A stretch of 64,000 nucleotides of DNA from Candidatus Yanofskybacteria bacterium (GCA_016181175.1 JACOZV010000002.1:115-64114), one strand, 5' to 3'; numbered from the stretch's first letter, positions 1,815-63,773 are shown. Numbers and translations: made by a program. The notes: generated from the letters alone by a model not told the origin.

Positions 1815-4325
1815 ATGAAGGTTGATTCATACGAAGAGGATTTTGGAAATTTTTCAGAAATAAGTCAGTCAGATTCCACGGTGGTGGAAGAAGGTGAAAA
1901 CCGAGATGGCAGTTCTGATGCCGTTCAGTACCAAGAAGAGCCAATTTTGGCCAACGTTACTCCTTTGTTTCGAACGACAATACGCCGGTTAGTTTATTCC
2001 GCAGTCTTTATATTGCCGCTTTGGTTTTTACCGTGGACGGCGGATATTTTGGAATTCAATAAGCAAACTTTGTTAATTGCGGTAGCCGGTATCGGGCTAG
2101 TCTTGTATCTGGTTGATATTATCAGGGGCGGTATTGTTAGTTATAAACCGACTTTGTTTTATTTTCCTGTTGCCGGCATCATGGCAGCTAGTGCCATATC
2201 GGTTATTTTTTCAGTTAACAAGTTTACCAGTTTATTTGGTGTTGGAGAGAGTCGAAGCGCCGCTTTTGTAACCGTTGCTTCATTGGCTGTCTTGTTTTTC
2301 TTGGCAGTAAACGTCATTGAAGACAGAGGAAATAAATTGAAGAAAATTGTCACTGCATCATTGGCGCTGGCATTTATTTTTGGAGTATTGCAAGTTTTTG
2401 GCATTTTTCTTTTTAAGGGAACGGTTTTTGCTTCCAGAGCTTTTAACAGTGTCGGCTCTTTGAACTCTCTAGGCATATTGGCCGCCTTATCCCTAGTATT
2501 TTTTATTCCTTCTGGTATTGCAAAAAAACATGACGACGAAAACTTGGCCGAACCGAATTTGATTTCAATGCTTGCCGGCGGCTTGCGTTATATAGGCATA
2601 GTGTCCGCTCTTTTGCTGGTCATACTTATCAATTGGTGGCCGGTTTGGGTTATTACTTTTATATCCTTGTTGACATTGGTGTACTTTGATTCTGTCGGTG
2701 ATGCCAGGTTGGTCAAAAATAGGAAGATGAAATTGTTTGCAATGCCGATGGTCGTGATCGTTTTGGGCGTTTTCTTAATGTTGATTAATTTTAACTGGAC
2801 GTCATTAAAATCAAAATTACCGGTAGAGGTTGCGCCATCGCACAAAACTTCTTGGAAGATAGATTTAAATTCTTTGAGAACCAAGCCTTCGGGCTATGGA
2901 GCTGAAAATTTTGCGATTGCTTATGATAAGTTTAAGCCGACTAGCATAGCTAACTCTGTTTTTTACCGATTCAGGTTTAGTGATTCGGCATCAGAGTTGT
3001 ACAATTCTGCGGCAGAAGGAGGTTTTTTGGCCATATTAAGTTTTATTGCGCTTCTTTGGTTCTACTGGAAGGAGATGACAGCACGAATTAAGGACAGTTT
3101 TAATAGCGGTGCGGAGACAAGCGCTATTTGGGCCGCAAGTTTTGGCTTATTGGTAGCTTACTTTTTATACCCATTCAATGTTGTAACCATGGCATTTTTA
3201 TTCTTGTTGCTTGCCTTGATAGTTCTGACTTCGGATTCCAGCCAAGAACGCACAATTAGTCTTGAAAGTGATGCGAAACTATCTTTTGCCGGTTCACTGG
3301 CCTTTATAATGGGATTAGTATTGGTTTTGGTCGCGGGTTACTTTACAACCAAAAATTACGCGGCCAATATTTCTTTGGCTAGAGCTTTGGAAAATAGCAA
3401 TTTGAGCAAATCCATAGAATATTTTGTAAAAAGTGCCAACGGTAACCCGAATGATACCAGGGCTTACAGATTACTATCCCAAGCGGTTGTGGCCCAATTG
3501 GCGGAAGATTTGAAAAAAGGTCCGCAAAAGGGCGAAAGCCGTGAAACTTATGACAGCAAAATACAAAACCAGATTGCTTCGGCAGTCAGCATTGCATTAA
3601 GGGCAACCGATACCAATTCGGCTGATTCTCAAAATTGGATAAATCGCGGTTTGATTTATGAAAACATCATGACCTTAGTTAGCGGAGCCAATCAGGCGGC
3701 GGTTAATATGTATAACGAGTCTCTGACGCGCAATCCGGCCGATCCGAATACTTATTTAAGAATAGGTAATGTCTACTTGTCCGCATCTGATAATCTGCAA
3801 AGGGCGTTAAATAATTCTCAAAATCGGGGAGGTGTTGATTTTGCCGCCGTTCGCAAACAAATAAGCGATGACTTGGTAAGGGCGGAGGAAAATTATAAAA
3901 AAGCAATTTCTTTTTATAACAACTTTGGCCAAGCCCTCTTTAACTTAGCGGTGGTTTATGATCGGCAAGATAAGTTGCCGGATGCTATCAAGCAGTTTGA
4001 GAAATTACGAGCGGCCAATCCAAAGGATCCAAGCGTGGCGTTCCAATTGGGACTCCTTTATTATCGCAACAACCAGAAGAATAACGCTTTTACGGTGTGG
4101 CAACAGGCGGTGATACTTTTCCCGAACTATTCCAACGCCAGATGGTATTTGTCATTAGTCTTTGAAGAACGTGGTGATCTGGATAATGCGCTAAAGCAGG
4201 TTGAGGAAATAGAAAAATTCAACCCCGATAACGAATTAATTAGACAAAGATTGACCCAGTTGCGTTCCGGCAAAAGAACGATACCCCCGGACAGGGTTTT
4301 AGATAAAAAACCCTTAGATCAATAA
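1815..4325 (+). CDS. Polytopic membrane protein with an O-antigen-ligase (Wzy_C)-like core and C-terminal TPR repeats
   Basis: At least 10 predicted TM segments; YNSAAEGGFLAILSFIALL resembles the Wzy_C signature; the C-terminal ~300 aa have TPR-like periodicity (the motif LGLLYYRNNQKNNAFTVWQQAV). Confidence 0.6.
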   Translation: MKVDSYEEDFGNFSEISQSDSTVVEEGENRDGSSDAVQYQEEPILANVTPLFRTTIRRLVYSAVFILPLWFLPWTADILEFNKQTLLIAVAGIGLVLYLVDIIRGGIVSYKPTLFYFPVAGIMAASAISVIFSVNKFTSLFGVGESRSAAFVTVASLAVLFFLAVNVIEDRGNKLKKIVTASLALAFIFGVLQVFGIFLFKGTVFASRAFNSVGSLNSLGILAALSLVFFIPSGIAKKHDDENLAEPNLISMLAGGLRYIGIVSALLLVILINWWPVWVITFISLLTLVYFDSVGDARLVKNRKMKLFAMPMVVIVLGVFLMLINFNWTSLKSKLPVEVAPSHKTSWKIDLNSLRTKPSGYGAENFAIAYDKFKPTSIANSVFYRFRFSDSASELYNSAAEGGFLAILSFIALLWFYWKEMTARIKDSFNSGAETSAIWAASFGLLVAYFLYPFNVVTMAFLFLLLALIVLTSDSSQERTISLESDAKLSFAGSLAFIMGLVLVLVAGYFTTKNYAANISLARALENSNLSKSIEYFVKSANGNPNDTRAYRLLSQAVVAQLAEDLKKGPQKGESRETYDSKIQNQIASAVSIALRATDTNSADSQNWINRGLIYENIMTLVSGANQAAVNMYNESLTRNPADPNTYLRIGNVYLSASDNLQRALNNSQNRGGVDFAAVRKQISDDLVRAEENYKKAISFYNNFGQALFNLAVVYDRQDKLPDAIKQFEKLRAANPKDPSVAFQLGLLYYRNNQKNNAFTVWQQAVILFPNYSNARWYLSLVFEERGDLDNALKQVEEIEKFNPDNELIRQRLTQLRSGKRTIPPDRVLDKKPLDQ

Positions 4326-4361: not shown

Positions 4362-5336
4362 ATGATTATCATGGTTGCCCTAATTATCGGGGTAGTTATG
4401 ATAATTTTGCCAAACTCTTTAATTCACAGAACGCTTCCCATAGAAGCAAGTTTTGTTATTGAGAGGGGCCAATCTTTGGGTTCAGTTGCACGTTCATTGG
4501 CAAAACAAGATTTGATATTAAATAAGTATCTTTTTGTGATTTATGCCATAGCTTCCGGCAACGAGAGAAATTTTAAAGCCGGAAATTATAAAATACCCGC
4601 CAATGCCAGTATCGGAGAACTGGTAAATATTTTTGCGGAAGGCAGATCAGAGCCGGAGGGTATGGTTGTTACCATTCCGGAGGGGACGAATATCGCAGAT
4701 GCGGACAGGATATTAACAAAAGCTAATATAATAAAGGCGGGAGAATTTTTGGGGGCGGCATTACAACACGAGGGATATCTCTTCCCGGACACATATAGAT
4801 TTAATGAAGCCGGTGGCAATAATACGGCAAATAATGGTGTTGAAGAAATTGTTAAAAAGATGCGGGAAAATTTTGAGCTGAAAACCGTAGATGTATTTAA
4901 AGGAATTAGCCAGCCAAGAATTAAAGAGATTGTTATTACAGCTTCAATTTTAGAGAGGGAGGTAAAGACAGAGCAGGATATGAAAATAGTAGCGGGCATT
5001 ATTGAAAAAAGGTTTAGTTTGGATTTGCCGCTGGAAATTGATGCCACGGTTGCTTATGGAGTTTGTTACCCGGAATTTTTATTCGGGCGTATCTGCGATG
5101 TTTCACTGGCAAATATTGTGGATAACATACCAAAGAATTCGGTCTATAATACATATAAAAGGAAGGGATTGCCAATCGGTCCGATAACGAATCCTGGATT
5201 GACGGCGATAAACGCCGCCTTGAATCCGCAGCCAAGCGATTATCTGTTTTATCTTAGTGCAAGGGACGGAACCACAATTTTTTCTAAGACCGCAGAAGAA
5301 CACGCGAGAGCGAGGGCTAAGTATCTGAAATTATAA
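4362..5336 (+). CDS. mltG: Endolytic murein transglycosylase MltG (YceG family)
   Basis: N-terminal TM anchor; YceG-like catalytic region with the motifs GLPIGPITNPG and LFYLSARDGTTIFS. Confidence 0.8.
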   Translation: MIIMVALIIGVVMIILPNSLIHRTLPIEASFVIERGQSLGSVARSLAKQDLILNKYLFVIYAIASGNERNFKAGNYKIPANASIGELVNIFAEGRSEPEGMVVTIPEGTNIADADRILTKANIIKAGEFLGAALQHEGYLFPDTYRFNEAGGNNTANNGVEEIVKKMRENFELKTVDVFKGISQPRIKEIVITASILEREVKTEQDMKIVAGIIEKRFSLDLPLEIDATVAYGVCYPEFLFGRICDVSLANIVDNIPKNSVYNTYKRKGLPIGPITNPGLTAINAALNPQPSDYLFYLSARDGTTIFSKTAEEHARARAKYLKL

Positions 5337-5369
5337 ATTTTAAATTATAAATTATAATTCAAAAAAAAT

Positions 5370-6422: not shown

Positions 6423-6460
6423 AACTAATTTTATAATTTTTAATTTTATAATTTTATAAA

Positions 6461-6506
6461 TAATTTTTAATGTTTAAAAATTAAAACATTAAGATTTATT
6501 TAAAAA
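6461..6506. repeat. AT-rich intergenic repeat (copy a; reverse orientation) with the hairpin core TTAATGTTTAAAAATTAAAACATTAAGATTTATTTAAA
   Basis: Reverse complement of the TTTAAATAAATCTTAATGTTTTAATTTTTAAACATTA motif found at 10893-10975, 14045-14130 and 63690-63770. Lies in the rplJ-rplL spacer. Confidence 0.55.
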
Positions 6507-6513
6507 CTAAAAA

Positions 6514-6912
6514 TTGGAAATTAAAAATTTAAACAAAATGAACAAAGAGGATTTCATAAAGGATATTGAATCTATGTCTGTGGTCGAATTGAACGAATTA
6601 GTTAAGTCTCTTGAAGAGAAATTCGGTGTATCCGCCGCGGCTATGGCTGCGCCGGCAGCCGGAGCGGCAGCTGAAGAGGGAGTGGGAGCAGCCGAAGAAA
6701 AGGATAGCTTTTCGGTAATTTTGAAAGACGGGGGACAACAGAAGATACAAGTTATCAAGGTTGTTCGCGAAGTAACCGGCAAGGGTCTTAAAGAAGCCAA
6801 GGATTTGGTTGATGGCGTGCCGCAAACCGTCAAAGAAGGAGCCAAAAAAGAAGAGGCCGAGGAACTCAAAAAGAAGTTAGAAGATGCAGGCGCGACAGTG
6901 GAACTAAAATAA
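6514..6912 (+). CDS. rplL: 50S ribosomal protein L7/L12
   Basis: 132 aa; Ala-rich flexible hinge ([16 protein letters not shown]); C-terminal domain with the motif [20 protein letters not shown]. Confidence 0.92.
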
Positions 6913-9959: not shown

Positions 9960-10172
9960 CACAGAGCAAACCAATTGATTGGTTTGCGTGAGGATTTGAA
10001 GACCGTAGCGATATATTTTCTGCAATTGGCGGAAAATATCGCGAGGGGCGGCCTGCGACCGAGCCGACGGAAGTCGGCGAGAATTGTAGGCAACTTCTTC
10101 GTTGCCCACCAGGCAGTGGATGTTGATAACTTGTACATAGAATTACACAAAAAGTGAATATTCAAGTTGAAT
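9960..10172 (+). ncRNA. Candidate structured small RNA between tRNA-Val and a strong terminator (function unknown; SRP-RNA-like GGAA-capped helix noted)
   Basis: GC-richer ORF-free stretch with several stable hairpins (CAAACCAATTGATTGGTTTG; GCGATATATTTTC...GAAAATATCGC; CGAGCCGAC-GGAA-GTCGGCGAG containing a tandem G.A mismatch; GGCAACTTCTTCGTTGCC). It ends at the terminator at 10173-10215. Confidence 0.25.
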
Positions 10173-10985: not shown

Positions 10986-11882
10986 ATGCATGCACCGGTT
11001 CTTCTAAACGAAGTTATAGAATATTTTGATCCCAAACCTGGGCAAAAATTCGTGGATGCGACTATTGACGGTGGTGGACACGCGCTGGCGATTTTAGAAA
11101 GAATTATGCCCAATGGTAAATTATTGGGTATAGATCCGGATAACGAACTGGTAAACAAGTTAAAATTAAAAATTCAAAATTCCGAATTCAAAAATAATGC
11201 GATTTTAGTAAATGACAGTTATGTAAATTTAAAAAAAATTGTCGGGGAGAATGATTTTATGGAAGTTGACGGGGTTTTATTTGATTTAGGCGTGTCCAGT
11301 TGGCACCTGGAAGAAGCGGGCAGGGGATTCAGTTTTCAAAAGAACGAACCCCTTGATATGAGATTCGGATTAGGCCAAGAATTAACCGCGGAAAAGATTG
11401 TAAACCGTTATTCTTACGATGAATTAGCCGAGATATTCAAAGATTACGGAGAGGAAAGGTTTGCTAAATCAATAGCCGCGGGAATAACAAAAGCCAGAAA
11501 AGACAAACCAATAAAAAATACATTTGAATTGGTAGAAGTGATTAAAAACGCGGTGCCATTCTGGTATAGGCGTGGAAGAATACATTACGCGACGAGGACT
11601 TTTCAGGCTTTGAGAATAGCGGTAAACAACGAACTTGATAATTTGAAATCAGGTCTTGAGTGTGGTGTAAATGTTTTAAAAGCTGGAGGCAAGATAGTGG
11701 TTATATCTTTTCATTCGTTGGAAGACAGGATAGTCAAAAATTTTTTCAGAGAAAGGGCTAAAGACGGTGATTTGGCCATAATCACAAAGAAACCAATTGT
11801 TGCCGGACTTGCGGAAACAAGTGAAAATCCGCGAGCCAGGAGTGCCAAGTTAAGAGTTGCCGAGAAGGAACGTCTCGGTTAA
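10986..11882 (+). CDS. rsmH: 16S rRNA (cytosine1402-N4)-methyltransferase RsmH (MraW)
   Basis: 298 aa with the motifs DATIDGGGHA, GVLFDLGVSS and ISFHSLEDRIVK. Confidence 0.9.
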   Translation: MHAPVLLNEVIEYFDPKPGQKFVDATIDGGGHALAILERIMPNGKLLGIDPDNELVNKLKLKIQNSEFKNNAILVNDSYVNLKKIVGENDFMEVDGVLFDLGVSSWHLEEAGRGFSFQKNEPLDMRFGLGQELTAEKIVNRYSYDELAEIFKDYGEERFAKSIAAGITKARKDKPIKNTFELVEVIKNAVPFWYRRGRIHYATRTFQALRIAVNNELDNLKSGLECGVNVLKAGGKIVVISFHSLEDRIVKNFFRERAKDGDLAIITKKPIVAGLAETSENPRARSAKLRVAEKERLG

Positions 11883-14034: not shown

Positions 14035-14140
14035 AATTTTTAATTTCCAATTTTTAATTTTTAAATAAATCTTAATGTTTTAATTTTTAAACATTAGAAA
14101 TTATTTATAAAATTATAAAATTAAAAATTATATATCAGCC
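14035..14140. repeat. AT-rich intergenic repeat (copy c)
   Basis: AAATTTTTAATTTCCAATTTTTAATTTTTAAATAAATCTTAATGTTTTAATTTTTAAACATTAGAAATTATTTATAAAATTATAAAATTAAAAATTA is nearly identical to copy d at 63664-63773. It abuts the truncated murF. Confidence 0.6.
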
Positions 14141-34639: not shown

Positions 34640-35524
34640 TTATAACAGATTTACTTTAAAATTGGGATGGCCTGCCAAAAATTCTTTTATATCCATTGGC
34701 TTGCCACCTTCAAGTTGCACTCTTTTAAATTTTGGGCGACCATTTTCCATTTCGGCGGCCAATATCTTTAGACTTATTTTTTTACCGTTTTTTTCAAGCC
34801 ATATAAACACGCCCGGTTCCGGGTTCAGAGCCCGTATTTTATTATATGTTTGTTCGGGGGTGTCGTTAGGTTTGATCTCCCCGTCTTCGGCCGTAAATTT
34901 TTTAGTAAAAGTTGCTTGTGTGTGGTCTTGCGGTCGCGGTTTAATTTTGCCGGATAAATAATCCGGCAAGGTTTTTATCAAAAGTTCCGCGCCTAATTGC
35001 CATATCTCTGCATTAATTTTGGGGAATAAGTCAATGCCGGATATTTTGTAATTTTCCGAAGAAATAATTGGTCCATGGTCTAATTCCTCGTCAATTTTCA
35101 TTATAGTAGCGCCAGATATTTTTTCTCCATTTAAAATAGCTGTTTGAACTGGTGAGGGGCCACGATATTTAGGTAGTAAAGAAGGATGAACGACCACCAT
35201 ACTATGCCCGGGCAAATTAAAAATTTCTGGCGGGATAAGTTTGCCATAAGCGGCAACGACACCGATATCTAATTTTAAATTATAAATTATAAATTTTAAA
35301 TCGGGATCATTTTTAAGACTAGACGGTTGTAAAACATTGAGGCCTAGTTTTTGTGCTGCAACCTTAATCGGCGGGGGAGTGAGGATTTGTTTGCGCCCAA
35401 CTGGCTTATCCGGCGTAGTAACAACTGCCACAATATAGTAGCCCGCCTTAACTAATGCTCCCAATACCGGCACCGCAAAATCCGCCGTCCCAAAGAAAAT
35501 TATTTTGGTTTTTGACTCTTGCAC
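34640..35524 (-). CDS. fmt: Methionyl-tRNA formyltransferase
   Basis: Formyl-transferase N-domain (IIFFGTADFAVP...) plus C-terminal domain; adjacent to def. Confidence 0.9.
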   Translation of the reverse strand: MQESKTKIIFFGTADFAVPVLGALVKAGYYIVAVVTTPDKPVGRKQILTPPPIKVAAQKLGLNVLQPSSLKNDPDLKFIIYNLKLDIGVVAAYGKLIPPEIFNLPGHSMVVVHPSLLPKYRGPSPVQTAILNGEKISGATIMKIDEELDHGPIISSENYKISGIDLFPKINAEIWQLGAELLIKTLPDYLSGKIKPRPQDHTQATFTKKFTAEDGEIKPNDTPEQTYNKIRALNPEPGVFIWLEKNGKKISLKILAAEMENGRPKFKRVQLEGGKPMDIKEFLAGHPNFKVNLL

Positions 35525-49302: not shown

Positions 49303-50118
49303 TTATTTATTCAGTGGGATTTTTTGTAAGTTATGATATTTCCAAAAAAACTTTATTGCACTGGCGATATGCCAGCGCGTTTTTTTATTAAATATCACAT
49401 CCAGTAATCCCAGGCGCGAACTGGATTCACGCTGATGGTAATGATACATTATGGCCTCTGGGTAATACACAACCTTGTAATCATTGTGCCAAAACCTTCT
49501 GGCCCAGTCAACATCTTCAAAATACATAAAAAATCTTTCATCCATGCCGCCAACCTTTTCAAGCGCTTCCTTGCTCACCATTATAGCCGAGCCCATTATC
49601 CAGTCCGGTGTTTGGATTTTGGACGGATCGGCATCGGCCACGAGAAAATCATCCAGGACTTTTTTAAATCGTCCGAATCTACCCAGAAAACTACGCCGAG
49701 CAAGTATTGTGGCCGGTTTATAATAACCGAAATATGTATTCTGGTGGGTTCCGTTGAAATTGAGCATGCGCGGCCCAAGCATACCAATGTCTGGATGTTT
49801 TTCCATATAGTCAGTCATTTTTATAATTGCGTTGTCAGTAACGACCACGTCTGGGTTAAGGACTAAAATATACTTGCCGTTGGAGTTCTTGATTCCCGTG
49901 TTAACCCCCCGCGCATAACCCAGATTTTCTTTAAATGACAGATATTTTATTTCCGGATACTGCTCAACAACCAAATCTCTTGCCTGACGTGAAATGGTCG
50001 AGTCAATAATAATAGTTTCAAGGTCTATGTTTTTGCATGTTTCCGCAAGCGATTTCAAGCAGAGCTTTAAAAGTTCGGGTGTCTGATGGTGGACGATAAT
50101 TATTGTTAGCTTGCGCAT
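49303..50118 (-). CDS. Family 2 glycosyltransferase
   Basis: GT-A fold N-terminus (IIIVHHQTPELLKLCLKSL), DxD-like motif. Confidence 0.75.
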   Translation of the reverse strand: MRKLTIIIVHHQTPELLKLCLKSLAETCKNIDLETIIIDSTISRQARDLVVEQYPEIKYLSFKENLGYARGVNTGIKNSNGKYILVLNPDVVVTDNAIIKMTDYMEKHPDIGMLGPRMLNFNGTHQNTYFGYYKPATILARRSFLGRFGRFKKVLDDFLVADADPSKIQTPDWIMGSAIMVSKEALEKVGGMDERFFMYFEDVDWARRFWHNDYKVVYYPEAIMYHYHQRESSSRLGLLDVIFNKKTRWHIASAIKFFWKYHNLQKIPLNK

Positions 50119-50120
50119 GA

Positions 50121-51194
50121 CTAATCAGTTAGAATATTTTTAAACAGATTTTTAATTCCTTCAAAATTTGCTTCTTTGGGTAATAATATATATTCGCCTT
50201 TTTCGGTTTTGGTTTCATAGACTAAATTTTCCGTGGTAATTACATAATTTTTTGCTTTATTTTTAGAACTAAAGGTATTTGCCAGTGAAAGCAAATCGCC
50301 GACATCCCAAATTTGAAAGTCGGTGCGTATGTTATCTTTTAGATCGGAAAGCAGAGAAGTTACTTTAACCGGATTGGACAAAAATCCCAAAGACAGTGCT
50401 TTATTCTTAATGATCTTAATTATTTCTTGTTGTCGTCTTGCCCTGTCGAAATCGCTTGTTGAATACCTGGACCGGGCATAATACAGTGCTTGCTCGCCGT
50501 CTAAATGATTGTCTCCGGCCGGCAGAAAGAACTCATAACCCCACTGATTTTTTTCTTCAAACGGTTTGGCAAGGTAAACATCAATACCGCCAAGATTGTT
50601 TACTATCTCCTTGAATGCATTAAAATCAACGACCACGACATTATCAATGTAGATGCCAGTAATCCTTGATATTATTTGTTTAGCCAAAGTTAGCCCGCCG
50701 CCATTTTCCAATCCTCTCTCATAAACCTCATTTATCCTCCCCTTTAATTTTATGTTTTTGCCATTCTGTATTTCTGCTGACATGTCCATATAAAGGTCGC
50801 GTGGTATGGAAATGGTTGCAGCTTTTTGTGTTACCTTATCAATACTCGTTACCATTATCGTGTCAGTAAGCAAGCCGCCCTCTTCTTCAATGGCTATTTC
50901 ATCTTCTCCTCTTATGCCCAAAATCAAAATATCCAGACGATCCGGCTCTTGTCTGGGTATCGGGTTGGGGTCAATTGTCGGTTTAGACTCGTCGCCGATA
51001 TTAAAAATACCAGCTACACTTTTCCACCAGGAGCTATTTTCTACGGAGATCGTGTTATACACCATCCCCAATTGATACACATAATAACCGACAACAATCA
51101 ATAAAACCAGAAAAATACAAAATAATGGTTTTTTAAACCATCGTTTTTTTGATTGCAATTTTTGAAAATTATCCGGCAGTATCATATGATCCAT
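50121..51194 (-). CDS. LytR-CpsA-Psr (LCP) family protein
   Basis: N-terminal TM; LCP domain containing ISIPRDLYMD. Confidence 0.8.
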   Translation of the reverse strand: MDHMILPDNFQKLQSKKRWFKKPLFCIFLVLLIVVGYYVYQLGMVYNTISVENSSWWKSVAGIFNIGDESKPTIDPNPIPRQEPDRLDILILGIRGEDEIAIEEEGGLLTDTIMVTSIDKVTQKAATISIPRDLYMDMSAEIQNGKNIKLKGRINEVYERGLENGGGLTLAKQIISRITGIYIDNVVVVDFNAFKEIVNNLGGIDVYLAKPFEEKNQWGYEFFLPAGDNHLDGEQALYYARSRYSTSDFDRARRQQEIIKIIKNKALSLGFLSNPVKVTSLLSDLKDNIRTDFQIWDVGDLLSLANTFSSKNKAKNYVITTENLVYETKTEKGEYILLPKEANFEGIKNLFKNILTD

Positions 51195-52261
51195 TGGCGT
51201 AATTCTTCGGGTGTTACATTGCTTTTACTCATTATTTCGCTTCTCCTTTTTAACATACTTGGTAGTAGTTTGGCAACCTTAAAAAATTCTAAAAACACCG
51301 ATGGTTCAAATATCAGAAAATATATCCCAAGCCGCAATTGCCGCCATAAAATATGTGGTAAATCTCGCAAGAGATTAATGGTAAAATCATTTTTAATTAT
51401 CGTGAGTGTAGTGTTTCTCAAATCAAGGCGGCGTTTAAACATGGGGATAGTTTTGCGGATTTTTATAAACTCTTTCCATCCTCCGGCTAGTGTCTTGGTA
51501 GTTTTACGATCATGCCAAGCAATGACGCTTGGCGCGTAAACTTGTTTCCAGCCGAACAATCTCATCCGCCATGCCAGATCAAGATCGTCGCCGTACCAGA
51601 AATAGTCACGGTCTATAATTTGATTGTTTTGTGATTCTAAACGGCAATCTTCCAGTGCTTGTCGGCGGAAAATCGGTACAGCTCCCTCTACGGCAAAAAT
51701 TTCACGCTTTTGATTGTATTGTCCGGAATCAGTTTCTCCATGTCCAATATTTACAATTCGGCGGGATTTAAAAATCTTAAACCCACAAGTATCAATAATT
51801 TCGGTGTCATCACAAGACCCATTTATGGTCTTGCGATGACCATGGATTGGATTATGGTCCAGTTCATATTTATAGACTTTTGCTTGGAGAGCTCCGATTT
51901 GGTAGTCCCGTTCCATTACTTCAACGGCATTTTTAATAAAATCTTTATCCAAAATTACGTCTACCGAGAGTGCGATAATATATTTACCGTGACTCTGTTC
52001 AAGCAATTTTTCTTGGCCGGGCCACATGCCCAAATTTTCTCTAGATTCTACTAGCGAAAATTTGGGCGACTGTCCACCGTCCACCGTCCACCGTCCACTT
52101 TTTAAAATTTCTCTTGTGGAGTCAGTCGAATTGTTATCTAAAATATTAAGTTCAATAAACTCATGCGAATAAGATTGTTCCAAAATCGAATCCAAACACC
52201 GGCGAATATATTTTTCACCATTATGGACAACAATATTTATAGAAACTAATTTACTTGGCAT
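51182..52261 (-). CDS. Family 2 glycosyltransferase containing a (CCACCGT)x3 heptanucleotide repeat
   Basis: GT-A N-terminus (VSINIVVHNGEKYIRRCLDSIL); the repeat at 52073-52097 encodes GRWTVDGGQ. Confidence 0.75.
   Translation of the reverse strand: MPSKLVSINIVVHNGEKYIRRCLDSILEQSYSHEFIELNILDNNSTDSTREILKSGRWTVDGGQSPKFSLVESRENLGMWPGQEKLLEQSHGKYIIALSVDVILDKDFIKNAVEVMERDYQIGALQAKVYKYELDHNPIHGHRKTINGSCDDTEIIDTCGFKIFKSRRIVNIGHGETDSGQYNQKREIFAVEGAVPIFRRQALEDCRLESQNNQIIDRDYFWYGDDLDLAWRMRLFGWKQVYAPSVIAWHDRKTTKTLAGGWKEFIKIRKTIPMFKRRLDLRNTTLTIIKNDFTINLLRDLPHILWRQLRLGIYFLIFEPSVFLEFFKVAKLLPSMLKRRSEIMSKSNVTPEELRQWII
52073..52097. repeat. Heptanucleotide tandem repeat (CCACCGT)x3.5 inside the GT2 gene
   Basis: GTCCACCGTCCACCGTCCACCGTCCAC. 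Confidence 0.8.
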
Positions 52262-52328
52262 AACTAGATAAATTTATTATATTGTGCATAGTTGTTTGAA
52301 TTTTTTAATATAGACAGAAAGGTAGCTA

Positions 52329-52742
52329 ATGGCCAAGGCAAGAGAAAGGTTAGAGTGTGCGCTGTCGAGTTTTTGTAAAATTAAGATAGAGGAAAAGGCG
52401 GCTTATTTTACACCCAACATGCTGTTACAACATCTTGGTGATATGTGGGGAGACAAAAACTCACTGCCATCTCCGCAAAAGCTAACCAGATCTCTATTTT
52501 CTTTGTATGAAAACGGCAAAGTGATAATATATTCGATCCTGGCAAAGGAAACCGATGGCATTATAAGATTAAGTTTTATTGGTTTGATAATGTGTTATCC
52601 GGAAGAATTTTCCCAGTCCCAGAAATTATCGCCGCAGTTACTGCGAAAAGTAAAAAGGCGCGTTCATCGAACATTGCGACGTCTGTTAAAGAATAGATCA
52701 AGACCCACGGGAGGAAAATTAGGAGGGAAGCGAAGTAAATAA
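52329..52742 (+). CDS. Hypothetical protein (its 3' part overlaps the minus-strand ligase gene; weakly supported)
   Basis: 137-aa ORF with a basic C-terminus; partly antisense to 52576-54159. Confidence 0.25.
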   Translation: MAKARERLECALSSFCKIKIEEKAAYFTPNMLLQHLGDMWGDKNSLPSPQKLTRSLFSLYENGKVIIYSILAKETDGIIRLSFIGLIMCYPEEFSQSQKLSPQLLRKVKRRVHRTLRRLLKNRSRPTGGKLGGKRSK

Positions 52743-54159
52743 TAATCGGTAACTGGTAACTAGTAACTGATGTCAAAAAATTGCGATGCGATTTTTTCAG
52801 AAGAAGCCAAAGGAACCAAAGCGCAAGAATTAATGCTGGCAAGCCCGTTTCGGCGGCGATATGGAGGTAAAGATTGTGCGCTGACGAACCTGCCTTGGCT
52901 CTGGCCAAATCTTCCCCCACCACGGCCGGAAAATTTCCTATTCCGACACCCAGCAATGGGTGTTTTATTATTGAACGGATTGAATCTTTCCAAATTTCAA
53001 TTCGGCGTGCATTGGAGGTTTCGGAGATATCTAAAACGGAGCGGGCGCGTTTGGCAAGCAAACCAGTTGAATCCTTTTCTGCCATGAACTGATTTGAGGC
53101 GATAATATAATATGCCACGCCGAATAATAAAAAGAAAATAACCAAGAAAGAACTAATATAGGCAAAAACTGCACGACATGTGATGTTGGGCGTGCACGAC
53201 ATGCGATGTCGTGCAATAAGAAAAATGGCCCAAACGGAAGAAGCGGCTCCGGCAGCCCAAATGCCGCGGGTGCCAGTGAGAATAAGTGCTAGAAAAATTA
53301 CAGGAATAAAAATAATAATCACAGAAGCGCGGGACTGTAGCATGGTTTTGAAATTGCCACTTTTTTCAGTAACTCGTTTGAGAGCGATAGTCATAACTGC
53401 CGGTAATCCCAAAAGCATAAATATGGGAAAAGAATGTGAATCTGGGAAAATTGAGAACATTCGCAAAGATAATTGATTGCCGAAATAAGCAAACCACGTA
53501 TTGGCTTTAATGGCCGTTTCAGCCCACACATTGCCGTACATGTTACGTTCTACTACGCCGCCCCAGAAATCTACGAACTGAAAAATATCCATAAAATATG
53601 TAGAAACAAGCTGAACCATGCCGACCAGAGCCACAAATATCGTAGGTATAGCAACATTTTTGATAATTCGCTGACAAAAATCTTGGTTTTTGCGAATTAA
53701 ATCATAAATTACAATACCAATCATAGAAAGATTAACAAAATAGATAATTCTTTTGACTGCTAAAACATGGCTTTGTGCTTGAGAGATTGATAATATCATC
53801 AGCAATAACAAGGCCAAGAGAATAAAAGACGAGCGTGAAAATCTGGGCATAATCTTTGGTTTTAATACCCAAAACCATTTCAAAAAAATCAGTCCGGAAA
53901 AAATACGCCACATATTTAGAGAATCAAAGCCGGCGGTTATGGGGATGGCGACAAAAAATGGAATTGAACGGACGAAGAATACAGTTGAGTTTTCAAGTGA
54001 CGCCATCAATACATAAACTGCAAGCGCAATTGTCCAAAAAGGCACAACCGTCCGCGGCAGAATCCCGCTTGCTACCAAGGCGATCACCGCGGGTTGAGAT
54101 ACAAATAAAATATTTAGGGTCGAATAATTTCCAAAAATTTGTCTGTATGTTTTTGCCAT
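52576..54159 (-). CDS. O-antigen ligase/polymerase (Wzy_C)-like polytopic membrane protein containing a (GTAACTG)x3 repeat
   Basis: At least 11 TM segments; SAHNLYLHIAAETGLPALILALWFLW matches the Wzy_C signature. The repeat at 52748-52768 encodes SYQLPI. Confidence 0.7.
   Translation of the reverse strand: MAKTYRQIFGNYSTLNILFVSQPAVIALVASGILPRTVVPFWTIALAVYVLMASLENSTVFFVRSIPFFVAIPITAGFDSLNMWRIFSGLIFLKWFWVLKPKIMPRFSRSSFILLALLLLMILSISQAQSHVLAVKRIIYFVNLSMIGIVIYDLIRKNQDFCQRIIKNVAIPTIFVALVGMVQLVSTYFMDIFQFVDFWGGVVERNMYGNVWAETAIKANTWFAYFGNQLSLRMFSIFPDSHSFPIFMLLGLPAVMTIALKRVTEKSGNFKTMLQSRASVIIIFIPVIFLALILTGTRGIWAAGAASSVWAIFLIARHRMSCTPNITCRAVFAYISSFLVIFFLLFGVAYYIIASNQFMAEKDSTGLLAKRARSVLDISETSNARRIEIWKDSIRSIIKHPLLGVGIGNFPAVVGEDLARAKAGSSAHNLYLHIAAETGLPALILALWFLWLLLKKSHRNFLTSVTSYQLPIIIYFASLLIFLPWVLIYSLTDVAMFDERAFLLFAVTAAIISGTGKILPDNTLSNQ
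52748..52768. repeat. Heptanucleotide tandem repeat (GTAACTG / GTAACTA)x3 inside the Wzy-like gene
   Basis: GTAACTGGTAACTAGTAACTG. Confidence 0.7.
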
Positions 54160-55217
54160 GTATATTTTGTCAAAATGCTCTGACGGGCATTTTTTATTTC
54201 TTGTCGTTTTGTCTCGTTGGTTAATCCCTTCGTAATTGCTTCGGCGATTGAATTGGGATCATCAGGGTTAGAAACAAAAAAGGCGTTATCCCCAAAAATC
54301 TCATGGCTTATTTCAGAATCAGACACAACCGCTGGTACGCCATGTCCCAACGCTTCAAGTGGCGGTAAGCCGAAGGCTTCTTTGGAAGAAACGTATACTA
54401 ACAGTTTAGCATGAGCGTAAAGCTGGACTAGTTCATTTTCGCTGACGTATTCTTTATAAATTATTTTTTCTTTGCCGATACGATTATTTATTTCTTTAAC
54501 AAGTGTTTTTATAATTGGTGGGTTATATTTATCTTTGCCGATTGCGACTAATTTTAAATCTGGAAAGCGTGATGATATTAATTCAAAAGCCAACATGGTT
54601 TCGCGCAGGTGTCTTCTTGGAAATGCTTGGCCGACATAGAGAATGTAATTGGTAATTGGTAATTGGTAATTAGTAATTGGTTTGGGTTGGTCAACACCGA
54701 GTTGGTTTACTACAATGCGGGTAGGGTTTATTTTGAACAACTGAGCCATTTCTTTTTTTGAAGTTTCGGAGATAGCCATAATTTTGGTAGCGTGTCTTGC
54801 TGTCCACCAGCCGGCAAAGATTTTGTAGGCAAGTTTGTAACGGAAGGGCAATGTACTGGTATGAATTTCGTAATAAATATCCTCGGTCAGCATAACCAGT
54901 GATTTGCCGAGAAATAAAATCGGAAGCATGTAATTAGGCAAAAACATTAGATCGAGTTTTTCGAACCAAAGTTTAATTGGCAGAAGTAAATAATAATACA
55001 AGCTGAATGATGATACTCCCGATACTTTCTTTACAAAAATAGGATTATCCAAAAACGGTAATTTGGGAATGTGTGATTTGAAATAAAGAAAAAATCTGAA
55101 CTCGCTGGTGAGTTCAGGTCTTAGTGATATTTCTTCAAGAAGATTTTTTACGATTCTACCGATCCCCCATGACTCGAGACCCTCAATAGATTCGCATTCT
55201 ATGCCAATTTTAAGCAT
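54114..55217 (-). CDS. Family 1 (GT4-type, GT-B fold) glycosyltransferase containing a (GTAATTG)x5 repeat
   Basis: EAFGLPPLEALGHGVPAVVSD motif. The repeat at 54645-54679 encodes PITNYQLPITNY in the inter-domain linker. Confidence 0.8.
   Translation of the reverse strand: MLKIGIECESIEGLESWGIGRIVKNLLEEISLRPELTSEFRFFLYFKSHIPKLPFLDNPIFVKKVSGVSSFSLYYYLLLPIKLWFEKLDLMFLPNYMLPILFLGKSLVMLTEDIYYEIHTSTLPFRYKLAYKIFAGWWTARHATKIMAISETSKKEMAQLFKINPTRIVVNQLGVDQPKPITNYQLPITNYILYVGQAFPRRHLRETMLAFELISSRFPDLKLVAIGKDKYNPPIIKTLVKEINNRIGKEKIIYKEYVSENELVQLYAHAKLLVYVSSKEAFGLPPLEALGHGVPAVVSDSEISHEIFGDNAFFVSNPDDPNSIAEAITKGLTNETKRQEIKNARQSILTKYTWQKHTDKFLEIIRP
54645..54679. repeat. Heptanucleotide tandem repeat (GTAATTG)x5, with one GTAATTA variant
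   Basis: GTAATTGGTAATTGGTAATTGGTAATTAGTAATTG. Confidence 0.85.
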
Positions 55218-56121
55218 TTATTTTTCCGAACCTTCCTTTATAAAAATCTAATACCCCAGCTAATATTGCTTTTGATATTTCAACATTGTGCCTCAATATA
55301 ATTTTAGTGAGCTGTTTAATTATAATAAAAAATGACCAAAATGGCAAGGAGAATTTAACCCAAAACGGCCCATTTTTACAGTTAAATAAGTGAGCATTTC
55401 TGTAGTGGTAGTGGAGTAATATGGGTGCTCCCAATGATGAGGTAGACGACGATTGTTTATGATGAATCAGTTCTTCAGGCACAATTTTGAGCTTGTAGCC
55501 CGCTTTTTGCGCGCGCAGGCAGTAATCAGCATCTTCAAAATAGAGAAAATAGCGTTCATCAAACAATCCAATCTTTTCTAAAACTTCTCGTTTGATAAGC
55601 ATACAAGCTCCTACAACATACTTAGTGGTTGAACTACTAAGTGCACTTAGTAGTTCAACCACTAAGTGCGAAAGTTCGGGTTTTAGCCAGCCAATTTTGC
55701 CGCCATAAATTATTTGGTTACCCTCGTTTATTGCGGGTCCTGCAATGCCTATTTGCTGATCAGATTCTGTTGCTTCTACTAATTTTGATAACGCATCCTT
55801 TCTAATTGTCGTATCGGGGTTCAATATCAAGACATAATCAGCGCCATGCTCTAACGCATGTTTGATACCCAGATTATTTCCGCCAGAATAACCAGAGTTG
55901 TAAGAAGTAGTAAGTAAAAAGTAACAAGTAGCAGAACTTGTATTGCCTGTTTTTTCTATCCAATTTCTAACCTCGTCGATTGCATTGACATCTGAGCCGT
56001 TATCCACTATAATTGTCTCATAGTTCTGATAGTCCAGTTCTTTAACAGAATTAAGGCACCTAATGGTGTCTTGAGAATTATTATATTGGAGGATGACAAT
56101 GAAAACTTTAGATTGATTCAT
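55210..56121 (-). CDS. Family 2 glycosyltransferase with an in-frame REP-like palindrome doublet
   Basis: GT-A N-terminus (VFIVILQYNNSQDTIRCLNSV). The 46-bp palindrome at 55621-55666 is translated as LVVELLSALSSSTTK. Confidence 0.75.
   Translation of the reverse strand: MNQSKVFIVILQYNNSQDTIRCLNSVKELDYQNYETIIVDNGSDVNAIDEVRNWIEKTGNTSSATCYFLLTTSYNSGYSGGNNLGIKHALEHGADYVLILNPDTTIRKDALSKLVEATESDQQIGIAGPAINEGNQIIYGGKIGWLKPELSHLVVELLSALSSSTTKYVVGACMLIKREVLEKIGLFDERYFLYFEDADYCLRAQKAGYKLKIVPEELIHHKQSSSTSSLGAPILLHYHYRNAHLFNCKNGPFWVKFSLPFWSFFIIIKQLTKIILRHNVEISKAILAGVLDFYKGRFGKINA
55621..55666. repeat. Perfect 46-bp palindrome made of two inverted REP-like units (CTTAGTGGTTGAACTACTAAG / CTTAGTAGTTCAACCACTAAG). 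It is related to the RAYT-flanking palindrome CTTAGGAGTTGAACTCCTAAG.
   Basis: CTTAGTGGTTGAACTACTAAGTG|CACTTAGTAGTTCAACCACTAAG; the second half is the exact reverse complement of the first. Confidence 0.8.
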
Positions 56122-57239
56122 TAGATTGATACCTTTTTCACCAAATCCGTTATCTCGTTTTTAAACCTTTTTTCTGAAAACCGTTCTGCGGTTTTTTTTA
56201 TTTTTTCGGAATCATAATTGGGCAAATTTTGTTTTAGACGGCGGATGCCGTCGGCTAGCACCTCTTCGGTTGGGTCGTCAAAAAATTCGCCATTTATGCC
56301 TTCTTGTATATATTCTAACGCGCCGCCGCGCTTGAGCGCCAATACTGGTTTGCCGTAGCTCATTGCTTCGATGGGTGTAATGCCAAAATCTTCCTCTTGC
56401 GGCATTATAAACGCTATACAGTTTTGATAATAATGGGGCAGTTCTTTGTCAGAAACAAAACCCAACATTTTAATATTTTTTAAATTTGAGATTTGAGATT
56501 TGAGATTTTTGTTTTCGGGGCCATTTCCTATTATGATGAGAGGCCAGCCTAATTTATTAAAAGCCCCGATTGCTATATCTATATTTTTATGTTTAAAAAG
56601 ACGGCTTACAATTAAAAAATAACCTTTAGTAATTGGTAACTGGTAATTAGCAACTGGTAATTTGGTTACCGGCGGGTATATTACGGAAGAATCTCGCTGG
56701 TAGTATTTCTTTATGCGTTGGCGGACGTTTTCAGAAATTGCGACAAAATGATCAACTCGTGTTGAGGCGTGCCGGTCCCAGATTCTTAGAAAGTGTTGGA
56801 CCAAAGATGCCCACAACTTGGGTGTAAAACTGATTTCTTTTTTATATTCTGCGTGCCAGTCCCATAATTGCCTGGTGGGGCTGTAACAATAACAGATGTG
56901 TTTTGTGCGCGGTTTGAGCACAAGTCCTTTGGCAAATGCGACAGATGATGAAATTACCAAGTCAAAATCACTTAAATCAATAGTCTCAATGGCAATTGGC
57001 AGAAGCGGAGTTAGCAATTTATGACTTTGGAAAATGCGATAGAAGTTTTGAGTAAAAGTTGTTCTAATTTCTGCTTGCGGCAAAAACCAATCGGTAAATT
57101 TTTTATTATAAAAAAGTGTATAAATCGGAGCTTGCGGAAATATGTCATGAAATGTTTTCAATGTCTTTTCTGCCCCGCCAACACCTAAAAGCCAGTCATG
57201 AATTAAAGCAATCTTTATGTTTTGGGTATTGTTTGACAA
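56121..57239 (-). CDS. Family 1 (GT4-type) glycosyltransferase containing a degenerate (GTAAYTG)x5 repeat
   Basis: EDFGITPIEAMSYGKPVLALKRGGALE motif. The repeat at 56629-56663 encodes LPVANYQLPITKGY. Confidence 0.8.
   Translation of the reverse strand: MSNNTQNIKIALIHDWLLGVGGAEKTLKTFHDIFPQAPIYTLFYNKKFTDWFLPQAEIRTTFTQNFYRIFQSHKLLTPLLPIAIETIDLSDFDLVISSSVAFAKGLVLKPRTKHICYCYSPTRQLWDWHAEYKKEISFTPKLWASLVQHFLRIWDRHASTRVDHFVAISENVRQRIKKYYQRDSSVIYPPVTKLPVANYQLPITKGYFLIVSRLFKHKNIDIAIGAFNKLGWPLIIIGNGPENKNLKSQISNLKNIKMLGFVSDKELPHYYQNCIAFIMPQEEDFGITPIEAMSYGKPVLALKRGGALEYIQEGINGEFFDDPTEEVLADGIRRLKQNLPNYDSEKIKKTAERFSEKRFKNEITDLVKKVSI
56629..56663. repeat. Degenerate heptanucleotide tandem repeat (GTAATTG GTAACTG GTAATTA GCAACTG GTAATTT)
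   Basis: GTAATTGGTAACTGGTAATTAGCAACTGGTAATTT. Confidence 0.7.
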
Positions 57240-62950: not shown

Positions 62951-63027
62951 GCAATTAGATTTTAGATTTTAGGTTTTAGGTTTTAGAAAATTATCTAGTA
63001 CCTAATACCCAGCATCTAAGACCTTTT

Positions 63028-63663: not shown

Positions 63664-63773
63664 ATTAGGAATTAATTTTTAATTTCCAATTTTTAAATAA
63701 ATCTTAATGTTTTTAATTTTTAAACATTAGAAATTATTTATAAAATTATAAATTATAAAATTATGTTTAAAAG
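63664..63773. repeat. AT-rich intergenic repeat (copy d) in the rpsK-rpsD spacer
   Basis: CAAATTAGGAATTAATTTTTAATTTCCAATTTTTAAATAAATCTTAATGTTTTTAATTTTTAAACATTAGAAATTATTTATAAAATTATAAATTATAAAATTA is nearly identical to copy c. Confidence 0.6.

Follow-up and report, generated by a model that had tools for sequence, protein, structure and literature searches.

Heptanucleotide arrays in the surface-glycan genes of a Candidatus Yanofskybacteria lineage: probable slippage microsatellites in permissive loops

Heptameric repeats are the most over-represented class of long simple sequence repeats (SSRs) in many bacteria, and slippage of the polymerase has been given as the cause (Mrazek 2007, summarised in PMC4679880 and PMC4692102); known examples include the cyanobacterial STRR sequences, GGGAATC in Xanthomonas and TAACTGA in Beggiatoaceae, Cyanobacteria and Bacteroidetes (PMC4679880, PMC4692102). 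Some heptamers act as genetic switches. In neuO of Escherichia coli K1, the unit AAGACTC occurs in 3 to 53 copies (mode 20) across 64 genomes, with 65.6% OFF, and alleles differing by one unit reach 2–5% in culture (PMC13001214), and the phase-variable Neisseria gene pglE carries the heptanucleotide CAAACAA. Here we describe six heptanucleotide arrays in five glycan genes of a 64,000-nucleotide stretch of DNA, hereafter the window (GCA_016181175.1, JACOZV010000002.1:115-64114), which belongs to a 142-kb contig of a metagenome-assembled genome (MAG) of Candidatus Yanofskybacteria, a member of the candidate phyla radiation (CPR/Patescibacteria). CPR bacteria, which are uncultured and have tiny genomes, spend their lives attached to host cells; in the literature that we searched, nothing relevant emerged on heptamer arrays or on SSR-based phase variation in this group. 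The arrays belong to the known heptameric SSR class and have an unusual distribution, being intragenic, site-conserved and always in frame. We consider it somewhat probable that they are slippage microsatellites which occur throughout the lineage and stay in permissive loops, and a switching role is mechanistically possible and unproven.

The first-pass annotation of the window had reported four heptamer tracts in four genes of a cell-envelope polysaccharide locus and proposed them as candidates for phase variation. Tandem Repeats Finder (TRF) recovered all four, each in a minus-strand gene, together with two that had been missed, an exact array in GT1-B and a degenerate one in GT2b, so that the count becomes six arrays in five genes (Table 1). 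We call these genes GT2a and GT2b (family 2 glycosyltransferases), GT1-A and GT1-B (GT4-type glycosyltransferases) and the ligase (a Wzy_C/O-antigen-ligase-like membrane protein), and Pfam agrees with these identities. The tracts are more than chance would give: six exact repeats of period 7 with 2.5 copies or more occur in the window against none in 20 dinucleotide-preserving shuffles. The GT1-A array is the longest and consists of three perfect units, one variant and one further perfect unit. It belongs with the ligase array and the degenerate GT1-B array to a GTAAYTG-type group whose members had been said to share the peptide YQLPIT(NY); YQLPI is common to all three, but the ligase tract encodes SVTSYQLPI and lacks the T(NY) extension. 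In all six arrays the unit has 7 nucleotides, a length not divisible by three, and a one-unit change shifts the frame. In silico, the gain or loss of one or two units truncated the product of every array-bearing gene, as had been predicted for single units, and a change of three units kept the frame.

Two of the arrays occupy, as proposed, the inter-domain linker of GT-B enzymes, and both enzymes show the hallmarks of family 4 (Pfam PF00534 and PF13439; two Rossmann-like domains connected by a linker, the C-terminal one being Glycos_transf_1). The AlphaFold2 (AF2) model of GT1-A (predicted local distance difference test score 91.5, predicted template modelling score 0.88) has a GT-B fold with strand-helix alternation in both halves, and the array peptide lies in a coil (residues 171-190) that joins strands 168-170 and 191-195. 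The latter strand is the first after the coil and falls inside the Pfam Glycos_transf_1 match, which starts at residue 190. The linker placement of the degenerate GT1-B array, whose peptide directly precedes YFLIVSRL, derives from Pfam domain boundaries alone.

Table 1. Heptanucleotide arrays, genes and other sequence features of the window (positions counted from its first nucleotide; units of the six glycan-gene arrays given as on the plus strand, coding-strand form in brackets)
Feature	Position	Strand	Description	Encoded peptide (residues)	Basis
GT2a array	52072-52098	minus	GTCCACC (GGTGGAC) x3.9, 100% match	SGRWTVDGGQ (55-64)	TRF; exact run
Ligase array	52748-52769	minus	GGTAACT (AGTTACC) x3.1, 86% match, one mismatch	SVTSYQLP (464-471), at 0.88 of protein length	TRF
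GT1-A array	54645-54681	minus	GTAATTG (CAATTAC) x5.3, 93% match	KPITNYQLPITNY (179-191)	TRF
GT2b array	55900-55930	minus	degenerate heptamer, 79% match	ATCYFLLTTSY (64-74)	TRF
GT1-B exact array	56484-56508	minus	ATTTGAG (CTCAAAT) x3.6	KNLKSQISN (244-252)	TRF
GT1-B degenerate array	56629-56662	minus	GTAAYTG (CAATTAC/CAGTTAC-like) x4.6, 72% match	KLPVANYQLPIT (193-204)	TRF
GT2c	49303-50118	minus	glycosyltransferase family 2; without array in the window		Pfam
LytR	50121-51194	minus	LytR_cpsA_psr ligase, LCP family; without array in the window		Pfam
GT2a	51182-52261	minus	glycosyltransferase family 2, 359 aa		Pfam PF00535, E=3.4e-20
Ligase	52576-54159	minus	Wzy_C/O-antigen-ligase-like membrane protein, 527 aa		Pfam PF04932, E=5.5e-21
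GT1-A	54114-55217	minus	GT4-type GT-B glycosyltransferase, 367 aa		Pfam PF00534; AF2 GT-B model
GT2b	55210-56121	minus	glycosyltransferase family 2, 303 aa; holds the degenerate array and the 48-nt palindrome		Pfam PF00535
GT1-B	56121-57239	minus	GT4-type glycosyltransferase, 372 aa, two arrays		Pfam PF00534, E=2.9e-34
GT2b palindrome	55620-55667		perfect, 48 nt, 23-bp stem, in frame; predicted RNA fold energy -38.6 kcal/mol
Ligase palindromic repeat	~53165-53215		23 nt x2; hairpin -20.2 kcal/mol
fmt-like open reading frame	34640-35524	minus	resembles methionyl-tRNA formyltransferase (fmt)		by eye
Array in the fmt-like frame	35271-35301		TATAATT x4.4	DLKFIIYNLKL
Start-abutting arrays	5328-5357; 62955-62987		intergenic
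18-nt-periodic region	~21600-22420		~800 nt; TRF periods 18, 36, 72		TRF
AT-rich element	6426-6533; 14035-14132; 63672-63764	both	intergenic; contains TTAATTTTTAATTTCCAATTTTTAA

The phenomenon extends well beyond the window. In a genome set formed by the window and 73 related loci from species-representative genomes (L018-L090; 74 sequences, 1.2 Mb), 117 of the 144 tandem repeats of high quality had period 7, and this period likewise dominated the exact-run spectrum of an extended set in which 80 metagenome loci (L096-L175) bring the total to 154 sequences and 1.8 Mb. Array length in the genome set ranged from 21 to 37 nt with a mode at 31-32 nt, alike in coding and intergenic DNA. Exact period-7 runs in the extended set peaked sharply at 31-33 nt and only one exceeded 37 nt, reaching 46 nt. 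The few period-8 arrays also measured 29-35 nt, and the limited quantity thus seems to be total array length rather than copy number, which varied between 3 and 5.3 per array.

Array density in the genome set was highest in intergenic DNA (3.4 per 10 kb), followed by GT1-B (2.7), GT2b (2.6), GT2a (1.8), and GT1-A and the ligase (1.6 each), and fell to 0.21 in 876 other open reading frames (ORFs), 0.16 in the neighbouring LytR gene and zero in GT2c and in the genes for MreB, S41 and L9. As many as 68 of the 79 coding arrays were found in the seven-gene glycan cluster, 67 of these in the five array-prone genes, which amounts to a ~9-fold enrichment over other coding DNA (p=7e-17). The clustering in a glycan locus that had first drawn attention is therefore real for these five genes, but it is part of a lineage-wide pattern in which intergenic density is highest. 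An additional array of the window lies in an ORF that resembles fmt (Table 1), and arrays are consequently not confined to glycan genes.

With period 7 over-represented and intergenic DNA far denser in arrays than ordinary ORFs, this distribution resembles that of the long heptameric SSRs described elsewhere, which are likewise dominated by period 7, dense in intergenic DNA and limited to few copies (2-6 in the Beggiatoa sets). Those repeats also occur occasionally in frame at the periphery of proteins, and polymerase slippage has been proposed as their origin. As with TAACTGA in Beggiatoaceae, intergenic arrays often abut start codons, including those of ribosomal-protein operons. Two differences stand out. 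Contrary to the STRR and TAACTGA families, no single dispersed unit exists here, as 76 distinct canonical units were counted among 115 arrays, which points to local origin rather than to one mobile sequence. We therefore ruled out that one mobile heptamer of the TAACTGA or STRR kind had given rise to them; the distance of the units to TAACTGA is that of random heptamers, the CAATTAC family showing only a modest excess. Moreover, ORFs contain two thirds of the arrays, and conserved loop sites in the interior of the five glycan enzymes are where these concentrate.

A close relative (L011/L018, GCA_016185545.1), whose GT1-A is 75% identical to that of the window, is rich in heptamer arrays of 4.4-5 copies, found both in the spacers of ribosomal-protein genes and at the intragenic sites known from the window. 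Intergenic arrays often end 0-6 nt before the next start codon (L36, S4, L13, GT1-A), for instance at 843-2010, 3963-3995 and 9966-10000 in this relative and at two places in the window, which leaves no space for a Shine-Dalgarno sequence; 24 of 38 arrays lay within ~15 nt of a start, a proportion biased by the heuristic used to define ORF starts.

Within the five genes, arrays recur across relatives at about ten sites: one in GT1-A (the linker), two in GT1-B (the linker and a position at 0.65 of the protein), two in GT2a (0.14 and 0.38), two in GT2b (0.22 and 0.5) and three in the ligase (0.18, 0.5 and 0.9). A clear array, made of many different units, is present at the GT1-A linker in 14 of 59 genome loci and 24 of 79 metagenome loci, and lag-7 periodicity is detectable in the linker peptide of 38 of 120 GT1-A orthologues, as compared with 4.5% of shuffled linkers. 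Linkers with an array measure 18.5 aa and those without 16 aa, and this difference of ~2.5 aa indicates that arrays overwrite linker sequence instead of adding to it.

The array sites are hypervariable among orthologues. At the GT2a site, GGTGGAC in the window corresponds to AGTGGAC x4.4 in L011 and to further units in other species; at the GT1-A linker, CAATTAC corresponds to ACAGATT, and at the GT1-B linker the CAGTTAC-like unit corresponds to ATTACCG, while seven-residue-periodic peptides of other units occur there in many orthologues. The ligase unit of the window is found again in L011 (12465-12488), with other units in L019, L021 and L024, and the position of the degenerate GT2b array carries clear arrays in L019 and L031. 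At the site of the exact GT1-B array, the unit and the peptide KNLKSQISNLK are also present in L018 and L065 and the peptide in P0150, P0151 and P0215. Different homogenised units at orthologous sites imply that the DNA is turning over. The first-pass annotation had named conservation of YQLPITNY in orthologues encoded by non-repetitive DNA as an argument against phase variation; no such conservation was found, the orthologous sites carrying arrays of different units, which excludes a conserved functional peptide and shows the DNA to be dynamic. Arrays at different sites of the same genome have units that resemble one another more than they resemble those of other genomes (permutation p about 0.001). 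Examples are the CAATTAC-type arrays of the window starting at 52748, 54645 and 56629, the arrays of L066 at 8399 and 8571, and L085, where GTCAAAT occurs at four sites (3647, 8410, 9033 and 9405). This similarity is a hint that arrays exchange sequence or that each genome has a bias of its own.

The intragenic repeats of Borg elements generally have units that are multiples of three. Borg tandem repeats, which are reported to create intrinsically disordered regions in proteins (PMC9879509), resemble the arrays studied here in being fast-evolving and perfect and in arising independently inside ORFs, where they encode loop or disordered segments. By contrast, the 7-nt unit is read here in all three frames and a change of one unit is a frameshift; the arrays also appear much shorter, and they reside in a bacterial chromosome.

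Comparing tract lengths across relatives, a test already suggested in the first-pass annotation, revealed no variation at the level of consensus sequences. Logan assemblies from four runs were 100% identical to the window through four arrays, and one contig crossed the fifth unchanged. Three NCBI assemblies of another species were identical across its arrays, as were the arrays in six pairs of independent metagenome contigs, each pair representing one species. In ten clusters defined at 90% protein identity, the linkers of full-length members had the same length, with identical peptides in eight clusters and point substitutions in the other two; no in-frame variants of ±7 aa were found within these clusters. 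The 153 loci contain ~610 copies of the five genes, and in none of these copies had an array turned the gene OFF. Five split genes appeared in this census, of which two were LytR (L079, L116) and three belonged to the five genes (L086 GT1-A, L055 GT1-B and L104 GT2b), none of these three being split by array length.

Each candidate OFF allele of the five genes had another cause or lacked an array. The GT2a gene of L017, split into 55 and 275 aa, was discarded as it reflects a TGG to TAG substitution in an orthologue without array. In L055, the shift in GT1-B lies downstream of the array, corresponds to neither ±1 nor ±2 units and reads as a deletion after SRL; in L104, GT2b seems to carry an indel of 1 nt, and the split shows no array. 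L086 (JBBTUB010000024.1, 10440-10480) has a GT1-A frameshift exactly at the linker, which is nearly absent, and it was rejected as an array-caused OFF allele given that no array exists at that site; the loss of the linker may be the scar of a lost array or an assembly error. In-silico repair by ±1 unit of 38 intergenic or edge arrays uncovered no convincing hidden OFF gene, the single AT-rich case (L036 at 1755) being probably due to chance.

The only sign of heterogeneity, a hint, is that contigs break in the longest array. Five of 26 ends of Logan short-read contigs were inside arrays, and contigs ended inside the GT1-A array in two of three runs. In a simulation of contig breaks based on a k=31 de Bruijn graph, the ends at 54674 and 54652 coincided exactly with the break points expected for alleles with one unit more and one unit less, respectively; the other three array-internal ends were not explained by simple unit changes. 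Palindromes also interrupt contigs. The species of L011 has three Logan contigs, which all stop at 11387, and the breaks were ruled out as variation since a palindromic repeat produces exactly that break in an allele-free simulation. Breaks at 55638 and 55649 of the window were set aside because a perfect palindrome inside GT2b is probably the cause.

This GT2b palindrome (Table 1), another feature absent from the first-pass annotation, has a perfect counterpart in L011 (9470-9519) at the equivalent codon positions of the gene; two stem positions differ and both arms have changed to match, so that its perfection is maintained. Other species have a heptamer array at the site instead. The ligase gene contains another palindromic repeat, which forms a weaker hairpin in the window and a 21-bp perfect hairpin of -44.7 kcal/mol in L011 (11356-11403).

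The explanation that we favour, with a confidence somewhat above even, is that the arrays are heptanucleotide slippage microsatellites of the whole lineage retained in permissive loops. Slipped-strand mispairing, a misalignment during replication or repair, would create the arrays and homogenise them, and they would survive where sequence is unconstrained, namely in intergenic spacers, surface loops and inter-domain linkers. Coding positions would tolerate only in-frame and stop-free versions; the five enzymes (two GT4, two GT2 and one Wzy_C protein) would offer about ten sites where arrays can persist or recur, and the unit sequence at these sites would drift in concert. In support of this, coding arrays occupy coil or linker positions in the AF2 model and according to Pfam boundaries, and all are in frame. 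Since a slip of one or two units truncates the enzyme, OFF variants must arise at low frequency, and since the ON allele is the consensus in every sampled population, switching is at most rare. Adaptive switching by the arrays is at best a possibility, and several of the features that define contingency loci fail.

Several observations weigh against slippage in permissive loops as a sufficient account. Permissiveness alone explains poorly the 9-fold excess, with five genes at 1.6-2.7 arrays per 10 kb and their neighbours and other ORFs at 0-0.2, the more so as the density in the five genes reaches half or more of the intergenic one. Enrichment in surface-glycan enzymes is moreover what contingency selection predicts. 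If coding arrays were kept perfect by single-unit steps, they would have to pass through out-of-frame intermediates. Neither the sharp mode at 31-33 nt nor the similarity of units within genomes is expected under simple, open-ended slippage, and Logan contigs end in the longest arrays, in two cases at the positions predicted for a one-unit gain and loss.

The strongest alternative, possible but in our view doubtful, is that these are true contingency loci, in which second-order selection maintains the arrays and the gain or loss of units reversibly switches glycan enzymes, yielding a combinatorially variable envelope polymer that might allow, for example, phage escape or changes in host attachment in episymbionts. 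The frameshifting unit fits this idea, as do the enrichment in five glycan enzymes with essentially none in LytR, GT2c, S41 and MreB, the homogeneity that arrays keep while their unit changes between species, and the two contig ends that match one-unit changes in a simulation that also reproduces palindrome breaks exactly. Precedent exists in neuO and pglE, where a 7-nt unit likewise sits inside the ORF of a surface-glycan-modifying enzyme, is translated as a seven-residue periodic peptide and makes read-through dependent on repeat number. Nevertheless, comparison with these systems does not support the classic mechanism invoked by the first-pass annotation. The variable neuO repeats are located in the 5' region of the gene, whereas the present arrays are mid-gene or near the C-terminus and are capped at about five copies, a single run exceeding 37 nt; their consensus length is invariant across three to four runs, six contig pairs and ten strain-level clusters, and no genome is OFF through an array, in sharp contrast with the OFF majority of neuO. 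Slippage at several sites, such as that at 0.88-0.90 of the ligase, would give no null allele, three of the five array-internal contig ends are off the one-unit predictions, and arrays are denser still in intergenic DNA, with one also in the fmt-like ORF. Finally, gene order in the cluster is kept in relatives, beside mreB and ribosomal-protein genes, and the cluster is a conserved core syntenic locus and not an accessory variable one.

A mixed proposal, for Yanofskybacteria and related CPR episymbionts, is that the ~32-nt, length-capped arrays at about ten conserved loop sites of the core cell-wall glycan enzymes serve as low-frequency frameshift switches or are renewed by fixed-length writing, and that in either case a minority of cells bears an altered envelope polymer, with phage escape or variable host attachment as the benefit, while the consensus stays ON; we regard it as unlikely.

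Quite improbable, in our opinion, is a dedicated or templated process that would write ~32-nt arrays in one step and copy them between sites, for which ectopic conversion between arrays or a reiterative polymerase or repair event would be candidates. It would account for the peak of exact runs followed by an abrupt drop and shared by period-8 arrays, for identical length distributions in coding and non-coding DNA, for the replacement of linker sequence with almost no net change in length, and for units more alike within a genome than at the same site across genomes. Yet no candidate enzyme or template was identified, unit diversity is extreme, and arrays of 21-28 nt are also common. The within-genome similarity is modest and could reflect constraints of composition or codons (stop-free in all three frames), and a recombination-length threshold could yield the cap without any new mechanism.

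Selection at the protein level, by which seven-residue periodic peptides would serve as flexible linkers whose length tunes activity in three-unit steps, as reported for NeuO, agrees with the linker position in GT-B enzymes, with the frame-keeping ±3-unit changes and with the conservation of the KNLKSQISNLK array peptide in four species, but is very improbable because the peptide encoded at a given site is entirely different from one species to the next, strain-level relatives lack ±7 aa variants, similar arrays exist in non-coding DNA, and perfect nucleotide periodicity read in all three frames indicates a process acting on DNA.

The glycan cluster comprises seven genes, all on the minus strand (49303-57239) and assigned by Pfam, and has as neighbours the genes for an S41 protease and L9 at one end and that for MreB at the other; its product is probably a cell-wall-linked polymer. 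The five proteins of the region initially flagged match exactly NCBI entries MBI2063019-MBI2063023, GT1-A being MBI2063021.1. G+C content is ~0.39. Elsewhere in the window, a region with a strict 18-nt periodicity is made of GAGTGAGCCA and GAGCAACCCA alternating with 8-nt variable spacers; it has locally raised G+C and several open frames on both strands, without a clear gene, and an Rfam search with it gave no match. An AT-rich intergenic element with TTAATTTTTAATTTCCAATTTTTAA, interspersed with 7- and 8-nt repeats, is present at three places.

For annotators, these arrays advise caution, as a glycan gene may contain a repeat with a unit length indivisible by three and still not be a phase-variation locus. 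If no switching takes place, they would be informative about mutation in minimal genomes, with one dominant period, a sharp length mode of 31-33 nt, turnover of units at fixed positions within genes and constant preservation of the reading frame. The sharp mode, the enrichment in five genes and the likeness of units within genomes leave room for a low-frequency switch and for templated writing. Should the arrays switch glycan enzymes even rarely, they would constitute the first contingency-type system proposed for CPR bacteria.

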